Shown: positions 15,001-18,000 of the stretch, one piece after another | How the letters are laid out: every line of letters begins with the position of its first letter | Numbering within the stretch: position 1 is the stretch's first letter | NCBI RefSeq assembly: GCF_988243305.1 | Contig: NZ_OZ547138.1 | From: a plasmid | DNA: 64,000 nucleotides | Reading direction: 5' to 3' (one strand) | Program-made: the position numbers

Positions 15001-18000
15001 CTTCCGGTGACTGGCGGTTGAGTTCCGGCGTGGGTCTGTGGGTGACAATGGCATCATGCGCCATCTCTTTTTCCTTTCGGAGTTTTTCCAGTGCTGCCCG
15101 CTGGGCCGGGAGTTTCATGCGAACCTTGATGTCGTATTCGACAATCAGCTGCATGGCTTTTTGCTTAAAGGCATCACTGCCGGTCAGCTCGATAACGCCG
15201 CCATAGAAGTTGGTGGCCACAGCAAGGGCAGCCAGGACCTTTTTGTCATCCGCGCTGGCGCCATCCACCATTTCGAGACAGTAGAGTCTGTCCAGGAAGG
15301 CGGGTTCACCGTCAACGCTGTAGAGCGCAGTCCTGTCGGGAAACTCTTTGTGTGTAAGATTTTTAAGGATCTCGTCCAGGTTGTGCCGCTGCGGACTGTC
15401 GGGACGGCGGGGTGCAAAGATAATCGTGTCCGGTTCCGCTGACGATGTGTCTTCCGGGCTGGTTTCCGGTGGTGATGGTGGTGCGACCTCCTCTGTTGCT
15501 GTTTCAGCCTCCGTGGGCTTTTTCTCCTGAATAACGGAAGGTTCTGAGGTGCGTGATTTCCCACCGGTCAGAAAACGGCGCAGACGGCTGAAAAGCGATG
15601 GCGTATCAGGGCGGGCTGCTTCATTCGCTGTGCTGGTCTCAGTGGCGGACACAAGACGCTCTTCCTGCAGTTTATCTTCAGCCGTCGGTTCAGCGGTGGC
15701 CTGCCGGACTGGCTGAGTTTCTGCAGGTTCAGAAGGTGAGGCTGTTTCTGCTGTGCCGGTGTTGTGAACAGCAACCGTGGCATCGGCATTGAGCTCCTCA
15801 GCGGGTGCGTTCCTGTTGTCATCGGTGATGTCAGAGGAGTGCTCTGCGCCGGTCTCAGCGGCAGACGCAACGCTCTTTTCCTGTGCTTTATCTTCTGCCG
15901 TCAGTTCAGTGGTCACCTGCTGAACTGGCCGCATCCCGGCCGGTTCAGAAACTGTGTTTGTCTCCGCGTTGTCGGTGTTGTGAACAGTGGGGGCCCCCGG
16001 AGTGTCAGCGTTGAGATCTTCCGCAAATGCGCTCCAGTCGTCAGCGCTGGCCATGGAAACCTGCACTTGTTCTTCAGACTGCGTTGTGGTGGTGTGCTGT
16101 GTCCCGGCCGCGTCGGAGAGGGAGGTTTCCGGTGTGTCTTCACTCCGGGGATGTTCTTCTGCCTGCGTGCTCTGGTTGTCAGCGGTGGTGGCAGAGGCAT
16201 TTTCTTCTCTGGTATCGGCAGCGGAAACAACGTTCTCGTGTGGTTTATCTTCTGCGGTCGGTTCAGTGGTTGCCTGCTGCACGGACTGCATCCCGGCAGG
16301 TTCAGGAAGCGTTCCTGTTTCTGCTGTGTCGCTGTTGTGAGCGGTGTCTGTACCTGTGGCGTCTGTATTGAGGTCTTCCTGGTCGCCAGCGGTAGCCGCA
16401 GAGGTATTCTCTGTGCCGGTATCAGCGGCAGACGCAATATTCTCCAGTGGTTTATCCGGGGATAACGTCTCCGCAGTTACTGATTGCAGGGATGCATAGG
16501 CGGCATAGTCATCTTCATATGCCTGGTTTTCTGTATCGTCGGAGTGGGTGTCATAAGGCGTATCCTGTGTCGCCAGCTCCGTTTCCGGGGCTGTGCTCTG
16601 TCTGTTTTCAGGGGACATTTGTGGCTTCTCATCTTTTACCGGTGTGAATATCAGGTTGCCGATCACGACAGCCTCACGATTGTCGGCAGTGTCACTGTTG
16701 GGTGTGGGGATACCGATATGTTTTAACTGTGCGTTCATGGCATTCTGAAAGTCGTCCCGTCCCCGGCTGGCGTCCAGGTCATTGAAATCGGTCAGTCCCT
16801 GTGCTTTTTCCGCCTCCGTAAAGGCCGGAATAATGACTTCGCCATTCGTGACTTCTGCGGCCTTTGTTGCACTAAAAACCCCTTTGTTAATTTCCCGTTG
16901 ATGATCGTTGTCGGCACAGAAGACAAAGGGGCTGTCAGTCCAGATTTGGCGGACATTTTCTGCCACGGCAATCATATTGCTGGCATCAACTGTCATCAGA
17001 ACCGGAAGGCCGGTTGCTTCGTGCAGGGAGGCGGCAGTAGCGTAACCTTCCGCAAATAACAGGGGACGGCCATTTTCCGGGGTTCCGAAGGTGAACCAGT
17101 TGCCGGTTTTCTCGGAGTCTTTCAGAATGCGGGCATCCTTCCCGCCGGAGACCGGAATACGCTGGTACGAACGTATTTCTCCCCGGCCGTTGCTGAAGGG
17201 AATAACCAGCTCATTTTTATTATTCAGCCGCACGCCAGGCGCGGCCCGGATGCCCTTGCGCGTCAGGTATTCATGTGCTGTTGCCTGTGGCAAACCGTTA
17301 ATATAGGAGCGGGCATAGCCGGCCTGTTTGTTATACTGTTGCTGCAGTTTACGTGCGTTATCATCGCGCTGTTGCTGAGCGAATGCCCGCAGATGCAGTC
17401 TGGCCAGAGGATCGTGTTGTTCTCCGCCGGAAAATACCCAGTTTGTGGGACTGTCATCGGCGCTCCGGTAGTCGCGGTACCAGCCGGCGGGACGACCATC
17501 AAGATAGGCCCTGTATGCGCCACTTTTGGCCCCTTTTTTGTCATCCCGGGTGGCCACTCTGTGTATGGCTCCGTCCATCTGTGGCAATCCCTGAATAACC
17601 AGCCCGGCGTTTTCCAGGACCTGAGCAAATTCAGTGACCGGATCGCCGGCATCCATCGACAGTTCCTGTGGCCGGGGTAACCAGCGCTCCAGCAGTGAAA
17701 GTTCGGTACCCGCCCGGGCATACCAGAGCTTTTTTTCTGGATCCCATGCGACAGCTTTGCGGCCATTTAACGGGGGAACTGCATTTTTTACGGCTTCTGT
17801 CTCCTCAGGCGGGACAGCAAGCCAGGTTCGATATCTGGACTTCATGTCGTTCTCCGGGGATTAAAGATGAGGGCGTTGTGATACGCCGGGATGATGAACA
17901 AAAGAGGGTGATGCTGGTCCGTGCCATTCACGGGGTAATGCGGTGTGGTTCAGGTTGCGCGTCATGTGGGACGGCATGCCGGGTAATGTAAGGTGATTTC

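Follow-up and report, generated by a model that had tools for sequence, protein, structure and literature searches.

A degenerate array of 72-residue repeats in the acidic linker of an IncB/O/K/Z-type Sog primase

The stretch of plasmid DNA analysed here, referred to as the window, comprises 64,000 nucleotides of contig NZ_OZ547138.1. On its minus strand, to which all coordinates below refer unless stated otherwise, lies an intact open reading frame (13820–17845) encoding an IncB/O/K/Z-type conjugative primase, SogL, of 1341 aa. This sog coding sequence is 100% identical to that of WP_134871776.1 in NZ_CP145695.1. In the annotation of that identical record the gene is flanked by icmT/traK on one side and by traL-like and DotI/traM genes on the other, within an MPF-I tra operon. 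Pfam searches detected DUF5710, Toprim and LPD7 domains in the protein. The Toprim primase domain (16754–17056, aa 264–364; PF13362, E = 2.5e-6, above the gathering score) contains an EGYATA motif (17033–17050, aa 266–271). LPD7 (15077–15328, aa 840–923; PF18821, E = 1.4e-9 and 6.7e-11) scored 38.2 and 42.4 bits against a Pfam gathering cut-off of 27, and sits inside a conserved middle domain of 140 aa that does not vary in length between alleles. Neither Pfam nor the PDB yielded a match for the C-terminal 321 aa, in which a DNA-binding domain was accordingly not identified, and searches of the PDB and NCBIfam with Sog returned nothing informative. The Toprim domain with its EGYATA motif, the position in the tra operon and collinearity with the 1255-aa IncI1 Sog bear out an earlier note on this DNA, which had recognised the gene as a Sog-type conjugative primase and had correctly described its product, at 1341 aa, as longer than the approximately 1255 aa of R64 Sog.

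Two linkers separate the conserved parts of the protein, and their boundaries were set by conserved anchor motifs. Linker 1 (15434–16636, aa 404–804) is acidic and of low complexity, with a net charge of -60 and 2% aromatic residues over aa 401–800, and holds the repeat array described below. Linker 2 (14786–15013, aa 945–1020) is rich in Pro, Ala and Glu and has an anchor-based length of 76 aa. The start of the shorter product, SogS, would lie close to the beginning of linker 1. Published lengths for R64 are 1255 aa for SogL and 844 aa for SogS (PMC6112013), and an 844-aa SogS within 1255 aa implies a start at Met412 of IncI1-type Sog (PMC6112013; pESBL coordinates). Met412 aligns with Met410 of the window protein (16616–16618), which we infer to be the SogS start codon. 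Most alleles have ATG at this codon and three have GTG; as it was always one or the other in the alleles examined, the capacity to start is kept. The match to a Shine-Dalgarno sequence upstream of Met410 is weak. As the array begins 47 aa downstream of this presumed start, it would form an inter-domain tether in SogL, joining the N-terminal Toprim domain to the LPD7 and C-terminal domains, and an N-terminal tail in SogS.

The array occupies 15614–16477 and consists of degenerate units arranged head to tail. R1 (16259–16477, aa 457–529) has 73 aa and matched the unit HMM with E = 1.7e-35, and R3 (15686–15901, aa 649–720) has 72 aa and matched with E = 1.9e-36. Between them lies a composite unit, R2 (15902–16258, aa 530–648), of 119 aa, which was resolved by two partial matches to the unit HMM, unit alignment and comparison of paralogues into R2a (aa 530–589, unit positions 1–57) and R2b (aa 590–648, unit positions about 20–73). 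The array ends in a truncated unit, R4 (15614–15685, aa 721–744), of approximately 24 aa, which contains only the first 23 unit positions (unit HMM E = 0.0015; shuffle test against R3, z = 5.6). TAEDK, noted earlier as a recurring motif, does recur at aa 530, 649 and 721, and TAETL is found at aa 457. A DNA repeat search of sog recovered a 164-nt core in three in-register copies (15643–15806, 15859–16022 and 16216–16379), which are 62–73% identical and set 216 and 357 bp apart, together with a 78-nt repeat family, also in three copies. Unit copies are 62–74% identical at the DNA level, with indels. When full units were compared with composition-preserving shuffles, z scores were 9–15 for protein, with 0 of 500 shuffles reaching the observed score, and 26–34 for DNA. 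Tandem Repeats Finder returned 0 rows for the region at a minimum score of 30 because the copies are too diverged. A blastp self-comparison of Sog yielded only the identity hit and was uninformative, so explicit unit alignments, shuffle tests and the unit HMM were used instead. The array thus falls short of a classical tandem repeat, in which head-to-tail copies are at least about 70% alike, yet the homology of its units is significant. The DNA repeat search, the unit HMM and the shuffle z scores together establish the imperfect repeats reported in the earlier note for this acidic, Thr/Glu/Asp-rich linker. Its description of three to four units of about 130 bp holds for the number, which is approximately 3.3, but not for the period, which is 216 bp (72 aa) plus one composite of 357 bp. 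Only the C-terminal core, which is the better-conserved part of a unit, measures about 120–160 bp.

The composition of the array is 20% D+E, 25% S+T, 17% A and 0.7% aromatic residues, with a net charge of -48 over 294 aa. Ten unit positions (N, D, H, ET, EPA, V and E) are invariant across nine aligned units, and a similar consensus was obtained over 20 units from six alleles. The acidic core has been retained in paralogous units although their synonymous divergence is close to saturation. An open reading frame on the opposite strand (15764–16465, plus strand, 233 aa) was rejected as a gene: the antisense stop-free stretch varies widely between alleles, the longest frame running to 169–253 codons depending on the allele.

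The window protein exceeds R64 Sog by 86 aa, made up of +64 in linker 1, +24 in linker 2 and -2 at the N terminus. The IncI1-type Sog gave nothing significant when searched with the unit HMM (E = 7), no significant internal repeats on self-alignment (score 62, where null scores reached 61), and no hit to the units below E = 1 in blastp with composition-based statistics. An apparent similarity to the units in uncorrected local alignment was rejected as a compositional effect, since shuffles gave z = 0.4. As judged by these sequence comparisons, the 86-aa excess reflects deep divergence between lineages.

The R1-R2-R3-R4 layout, with R4 truncated, is common to nine further full-length alleles and about 30 protein clusters. 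The R2 region is matched by 361 plasmid records, and the architecture recurs in almost every one of some 360 related records. Relatives with the 3.3-unit architecture encode Sog proteins of 1338, 1341, 1343, 1353 or 1355 aa; 1353 aa is the modal length, and approximately 95% of records fall into one length class. The 1341-aa allele is present in 3 of the 361 plasmid records and in 8 of 251 E. coli plasmid records, while a 1463-aa allele with one extra mosaic unit of 120 aa accounts for 5 of 360. Intact annotated alleles differ by in-frame indels only, and one frame-broken copy (CP061248.1) is unannotated. Searching 1.84 billion representative proteins with the unit profile found only 13, and those inspected were Sog or fragments of this linker. 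A search for homologous proteins with the linker gave 32 clusters, which were mostly contig-truncated fragments, included no full-length proteins and could not serve for a census of lengths.

Because the same layout occurs in nearly all related IncB/O/K/Z plasmids, the repeat array is, on this distribution, an ordinary feature of the lineage and not an expansion specific to one plasmid. Aligning Sog across IncI plasmids, as had been proposed, separates the two groups: repeats are undetectable in the R64-type linker yet common to nearly all IncB/O/K/Z relatives. That a plasmid-specific expansion alters the behaviour of the transferred primase is very improbable. Sog length does vary in the lineage, between 1338 and 1463 aa, but the unit count of the window allele is the lineage norm and its product falls 12 aa short of the modal one, so that calling the repeats expanded is not supported. 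The suggestion that copy number may vary between plasmids holds in so far as the 1463-aa allele carries a whole-unit change, which is rare. Sog proteins of the I-complex thus have two types of linker, an R64 type without repeats and a B/O/K/Z type with an array of approximately 72-aa units, and length differences between them are therefore lineage markers rather than signs of recent expansion.

The window allele is marked by an in-frame change of 36 bp in R2. In relatives, a 36-bp segment is present as two diverged tandem copies that agree at 27 of 36 nt, and both open with the 16-nt sequence GAAGAAAATGCCTCTG. In the window there is one copy, and this sequence occurs once, at 16192–16207, where it forms the junction of the change. 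The 12 residues missing relative to the 1353-aa allele are EENASVATADTG. The missing segment is bounded by a 16-bp perfect direct repeat, and its absence was found on allelic backgrounds that are each nearer to a non-deleted allele than to one another. On parsimony, the event was probably a deletion and not a duplication.

The earlier note also raised the concern that the repeat count might be an assembly artefact, caused by collapse or expansion. Partial proteins encoded on contigs of 1–2 kb are common among the database homologues, so short-read assemblies do break in sog. One partial protein (P0033) has a linker of 326 aa that lacks one unit at a 21-nt exact repeat. It is uncorroborated: in the two closed-plasmid collections, nothing matched a synthetic query spanning its junction at more than 91%. 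We regard this one-unit contraction only as a candidate, possibly a short-read misjoin at the 21-nt repeat. For the window allele the concern is answered. The longest exact repeat inside its sog gene is 16 nt, the units are only 62–74% identical, and the 1341-aa length and deletion junction recur in at least eight closed plasmid records, several independent assemblies among them. Sources of this allele include the Kenya-labelled strains S1-KEN-03-A and S1-KEN-04-A, the UK, Pakistan, Chile, a frigatebird isolate and a Salmonella record. An artefact is, on this evidence, hardly conceivable.

Selection on the linker is weaker than on the folded domains, with dN/dS of 0.44–0.56 and 0.08–0.29, respectively, and for the array between alleles the ratio is 0.4–1.0. 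Paralogous units, at dS of 0.7–1.5, gave dN/dS of 0.25–0.43, values that err on the low side because protein similarity guided the alignment. Within units, constraint is slightly tighter in the C-terminal half than in the N-terminal half. In an AlphaFold model of the SogS part (mean pLDDT 37.7), the linker had pLDDT of 25–37 with almost no secondary structure, and none across the array. The C-terminal domain was also poorly modelled, and confidence was low everywhere except in the LPD7 region. The model alignment held only nine close sequences, and low pLDDT in the array is therefore weak evidence for disorder. Linker 1 is probably disordered, as judged from its composition and, weakly, from this model.

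Composition, divergence pattern and position together make a weakly constrained, disordered acidic spacer the most likely role for the array. The ten invariant positions and the paralogous dN/dS below 0.5 hint at some sequence-specific constraint beyond that of a pure spacer, and two more specific functions can be considered.

Recognition of Glu-rich signals has a precedent in DotM, of which TrbA is a homologue (PMC5802825), and SogL export reaches hundreds of copies and does not depend on DNA (PMC8406263). The units might be multivalent acidic signals for docking or export, to which the type IVB coupling complex would bind through TrbA and the DotL homologue TrbC, driving this DNA-independent export. 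In charge and D+E content the array resembles the acidic Glu-rich segments of Dot/Icm substrates. A conserved acidic motif (E-D-L-N-x-D ... ET ... EPA ... EP) recurs in every unit, and the invariant residues, their agreement with the 20-unit consensus, the paralogous dN/dS and the tighter constraint on C-terminal unit halves are in keeping with a binding function. Known Glu-rich Dot/Icm signals sit near the C terminus, however, whereas the array is internal, and its dN/dS between alleles also speaks against this reading. IncI1-type Sog, moreover, is exported without such units, so any export signal would have to be compositional. We consider docking doubtful. The narrower proposal, that the core EDLNxD...H..ET...EPA...V...EP is a putative multivalent TrbA/TrbC (DotM/DotL-like) binding motif and that unit number tunes the export dose, is decidedly doubtful. 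If true, it would explain how hundreds of Sog molecules are exported without DNA in I-type conjugation.

SSB-type proteins offer well-known cases of acidic tails regulating DNA binding. By analogy, the array could be an intramolecular DNA mimic, masking DNA-binding surfaces of the Sog C terminus in the donor until transferred single-stranded DNA is met in the recipient. Its net charge and near absence of hydrophobic residues would suit such a role, as would the proposal that Sog proteins coat the transferred strand (PMC6112013). The C-terminal 321 aa, in which Pfam and PDB searches found no DNA-binding domain, speak against it, and we judge this reading improbable.

Taken as a whole, linker 1 of IncB/O/K/Z Sog contains a lineage-specific, degenerate array of approximately 72-aa units that is likely to be spacer-like. 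The units stem from old duplications and then drifted under weak purifying selection. Array length changes occasionally and always in frame, apparently both by events at short direct repeats and by out-of-register recombination between units, and the window allele, with its 36-bp deletion at a 16-bp direct repeat, is one minor variant. The array most probably acts as a flexible, negatively charged spacer whose length class and composition appear to matter more than its exact sequence, and which would leave the primase domain free to move with respect to the remainder of the abundantly exported protein. In the searchable literature we found no test of Sog linker length or sequence in export or conjugation, and the natural series of 1338, 1341, 1353 and 1463 aa offers a ready-made set for examining such effects. 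Alleles of sog are already in use for typing IncI1 plasmids. The 36-bp deletion and the additional 120-aa unit could serve as epidemiological markers for B/O/K/Z plasmids. The practical value of these findings is modest overall.

Compared with known systems, the window gene is closest to sog of K2/Z plasmids (for example WP_013307874.1, 1353 aa, annotated as an LPD7 domain-containing protein), which shows 99.2–99.4% DNA identity over the gene and the same repeat architecture; these 1353-aa relatives carry the 36 bp (12 aa) in R2 that the window allele lacks. The sogLS genes of pMS7163B, which are needed for surface conjugation of that IncB/O/K/Z plasmid (PMC10286972), belong to the same lineage, the identity figures coming from other plasmids of the lineage. 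Transfer of pESBL is blocked by insertions in the SogS part of sog (PMC4288162), and primase activity and export to recipients are established for ColIb-P9 and R64 only (PMC8406263, PMC6112013). The IncI1 Sog of R64 and ColIb-P9 occupies the same position in the tra operon and has the same domain order: DUF5710 and Toprim/EGYATA, acidic linker, LPD7 middle domain, Pro-rich linker and 321-aa C-terminal domain. Folded domains of the window and IncI1 proteins are 403 and 405 aa long at the N terminus (75% identity), 140 aa in both for the middle domain (69%) and 321 aa in both at the C terminus (64%). In contrast, linker 1 measures 401 aa in the window and 337 aa in IncI1, the two sequences being unrelated and the 72-aa array present in the window lineage only, and linker 2 measures 76 and 52 aa, respectively. 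Upstream of sog lies nuc in IncI1 and an AT-rich open reading frame of 193 aa in the window.

RP4 TraC1/TraC2 and IncL/M Pri are likewise exported Toprim primases of the transfer region, with a nested, shorter second product from an internal in-frame start (PMC7213743, PMC6112013). In TraC1 the Toprim domain is C-terminal, unlike that of Sog, which is N-terminal, and Pri is reported to be only 23–30% identical to SogL (PMC7213743). Degenerate tandem repeats in other disordered linkers of bacterial proteins behave much as the Sog array appears to: they too acquire in-frame indels at short direct repeats, gain whole units by out-of-register recombination and evolve faster than the flanking domains. 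Contingency or phase-variable loci have short, near-identical units that undergo frequent and often frame-shifting changes. With units of 216 bp and approximately 95% of records in one length class, the Sog array does not fit that description; it is far more stable than true contingency repeats because its units are long and old and its longest exact repeat is so short.

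The repeat array lies in a single long open reading frame on the minus strand (13820-17845), encoding a Sog conjugative DNA primase of 1341 aa. Pfam domains were found at aa 6-57 (DUF5710), 264-364 (Toprim) and 840-923 (LPD7), and the EGYATA primase motif at aa 266-271. The gene is 100% identical in DNA sequence to a CDS in Escherichia coli plasmid NZ_CP145695.1 (typed as IncI-gamma/K1, MOBP, MPF-I), flanked there by icmT/traK on one side and traL-like, DotI and DotH genes on the other. This is the usual sog position of I-type transfer regions, as annotated in pOU7519 and pESBL, and the identification as Sog made in the earlier note, from sequence alone, is correct. 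sogLS is needed for conjugation of a B/O/K/Z plasmid (PMC10286972). Hundreds of copies of the Sog proteins are delivered to recipients, and their export does not depend on DNA (PMC8406263); a role in coating and priming the incoming strand has been proposed for them (PMC6112013).

icmT/traK and sog are separated by an AT-rich insert of about 1.1 kb (17846-19011), whose GC content is 40-43% where that of the flanks is about 55%. It contains a 193-aa ORF on the minus strand (18199-18780; WP_025750394.1) whose first 30 or so residues are strongly hydrophobic and which has no match in Pfam or NCBIfam. IncI1-type plasmids carry nuc (phospholipase D family) at this site, and most K2/Z relatives just a 63-bp gap. 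Downstream of the pil cluster, at 38435-42490, an identical public record shows flotillin-family, OB-fold-containing (as annotated) and NusG-family genes.

Conserved anchor motifs were used to set the segment borders of the protein, giving an N-terminal domain of 403 aa, linker 1 of 401 aa, a middle (LPD7) domain of 140 aa, a Pro/Ala/Glu-rich linker 2 of 76 aa (aa 945-1020; 14786-15013) and a C-terminal domain of 321 aa. The array occupies 15614-16477 (minus strand) inside linker 1, in agreement with the interval noted previously, and consists of units R1 (aa 457-529, 73 aa), R2 (aa 530-648, 119 aa) and R3 (aa 649-720, 72 aa) followed by a truncated R4 (aa 721-744, 24 aa), so that the original count of three to four units was fair. 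A hidden Markov model (HMM) of the unit showed R2 to be composite, R2a corresponding to unit positions 1-57 and R2b to positions from about 20 to 73. A DNA repeat search found a 164-nt core in three in-register copies, 62-73% identical and spaced by 216 and 357 bp, and a second family of 78 nt, also in three copies. The period is thus 216 bp rather than the roughly 130 bp first described. Tandem Repeats Finder reported no repeats in the array, as expected because the copies have strongly diverged. Scores for pairs of full units exceeded those of all 500 composition-preserving shuffles (z of 9-15 for protein and 26-34 for DNA). The repeats are therefore real. We found no description of the repeat architecture of this linker in the searchable literature; the array is a feature of ordinary kind, and the protein a known one. 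A 233-aa ORF antisense to it (15764-16465, plus strand) was rejected as a candidate gene, as the antisense stop-free stretch varies from 169 to 253 codons (longest frame) between alleles; most probably it just follows from sense-strand codon composition.

Linker 1 (measured over aa 401-800) contains 20.5% D+E, 24.5% S+T and 2% aromatic residues, with a net charge of -60. AlphaFold, run on the SogS part (the shorter Sog product) with a shallow alignment of 9 sequences, gave pLDDT values of 25-37 for the array and predicted it to lack secondary structure; since the model was poor for the C-terminal domain too, it supports disorder of the array only weakly. Two islands flanking the array, YEDDYAAYASL (aa 443-453; 16487-16519) and LFSRLRRFL (aa 751-759; 15569-15595), are the sole predicted helices and the sole aromatic or basic patches in linker 1, and may be short linear motifs. 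The IncI1-type linker has look-alikes, EEYEDYSAYQELM and GLFTRKK, at a different spacing. SogL (the full-length product) and SogS have been described as 1255 and 844 aa respectively, SogS being translated from an internal start in the same frame (PMC6112013), and pESBL coordinates agree (PMC4288162). The start is Met412 in IncI1-type Sog, and its aligned counterpart here is Met410 (ATG, 16618-16616); across alleles this codon is ATG or GTG, each usable for initiation. The array begins 47 residues downstream of the putative start, a position that would make it an inter-domain tether in SogL and an N-terminal tail in SogS. pESBL transfer is lost when a transposon inserts in the SogS part, whereas part of the SogL-only region is tolerant (PMC4288162).

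Full-length sog genes from related plasmids were compared for linker length and layout. Linker 1 measures 398, 401, 403 and 413 aa in the alleles of 1338, 1341 (the window), 1343 and 1353 aa, and about 415 aa, judged from total length, in that of 1355 aa. All these B/O/K/Z-type alleles, and protein clusters from public assemblies, share the layout R1-R2-R3-truncated R4. In an evenly spaced sample of 444 matching plasmid records, close relatives were almost all 36 bp longer than the window, which does not support the description of its repeats as expanded. The longer relatives carry a tandem pair of diverged 36-bp copies, EENASVATADTG and EENASATTADNQ, sharing 27 of 36 nt and each opening with the 16-mer GAAGAAAATGCCTCTG; the window has one copy only. 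The flanks are about 99% identical but the two copies have diverged, and the window allele is most parsimoniously read as a 36-bp deletion (a 12-aa contraction) at the 16-bp repeat in its own lineage. The short allele is rare, with 3 occurrences among 361 plasmid records and 8 among 251 E. coli plasmid records, on plasmids of varied size and origin. Four 1341-aa alleles differ pairwise at 11-27 sites, one being 12 sites from a non-deleted allele and 27 from the window; this suggests that the deletion has recurred, or has spread through recombination. Both NZ_CP196680.1 (126 kb) and NZ_CP196681.1 (88.7 kb) of E. coli 99RCEF, a frigatebird isolate, carry the rare deleted sog, suggesting gene conversion between plasmids or common origin.

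Whole units also vary in number between plasmids, as had been proposed, though rarely, and the variation overall is minor. The 1463-aa Sog of pDR19cip_scFOS and pPK8275-82kb has one additional R2-type unit of 120 aa, which opens like R3, continues with an R2 centre and closes with R2 sequence resembling that of the window; such a mosaic would be the expected product of out-of-register recombination between units. The junction of this additional unit was seen in 5 of 360 plasmid records and in a single one of 251 E. coli plasmid records. A partial protein, P0033 (linker of 326 aa), lacks one unit, which could have been lost by deletion between 21-nt exact repeats; this junction was absent from both closed-plasmid collections searched. 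The array changes length in frame, at short direct repeats and by unit-level recombination. The concern that the repeat count might be an assembly artefact is answered by the longest exact repeat in the window gene (16 nt), by unit identities of 62-74% and by recurrence of the short allele in independently closed plasmids. Database homologues of the linker (P0001-P0032) are mostly partial proteins on contigs of 1-2 kb, indicating that short-read assemblies commonly fragment inside sog, perhaps owing to co-resident related plasmids; the window is unaffected.

Between alleles, dN/dS is 0.44-0.56 in linker 1 and 0.08-0.29 in the folded domains. C-terminal halves of the units (0.38-0.51) are slightly more constrained than N-terminal halves (0.49-0.98). 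Paralogous window units gave dS of 0.7-1.5 and dN/dS of 0.25-0.43 (biased downward by protein-similarity-guided alignment), indicating that the duplications are old and that some amino-acid constraint remains. Ten positions (N, D, H, ET, EPA, V, E) are invariant over 9 aligned units, and the consensus of 20 units from six alleles agrees with them. Against one public sog region (L004) the window gene is 98.8% identical in the C-terminal domain, 94% in the N domain and 70% in the linker; against another (L003) identity is 97.8% in the N domain but falls to 90.7% in the C-terminal domain. sog is therefore mosaic between plasmids, with recombination breakpoints within the gene. In a third region (L012; CP061248.1, 759-4840) sog is unannotated and its frame split into several pieces, reflecting either a pseudogene or uncorrected sequencing errors.

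IncI1-type linker 1 has no internal repeats that reach significance (top score 62, null up to 61) and no match to the unit HMM (E = 7), and its similarity to the window linker is only compositional (z = 0.4; no blastp match with composition-based statistics). Searched as a profile against 1.84 billion representative proteins, the unit gave only 13 matches, those inspected being Sog or fragments of this linker. The array is thus a degenerate repeat, peculiar to the B/O/K/Z lineage and embedded in an acidic segment of low complexity. This segment probably serves as a spacer or tail that is disordered and negatively charged, in which composition and approximate length would be retained and the sequence could drift with little restriction; this view is supported chiefly by R64-type Sog, which functions with an acidic linker of similar length class but unrelated sequence. 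A more interesting but poorly supported alternative is that the TrbA/TrbC coupling complex could recognise the acidic units, by analogy with the TrbA homologue DotM, which binds Glu-rich effector sequences (PMC5802825). As noted earlier, the window Sog is longer than the 1255-aa Sog of R64, by 86 residues: relative to IncI1-type Sog the N-terminus is 2 aa shorter, linker 1 is 64 aa longer and linker 2 is 24 aa longer (76 against 52 aa), while the middle and C-terminal domains are equal in length.
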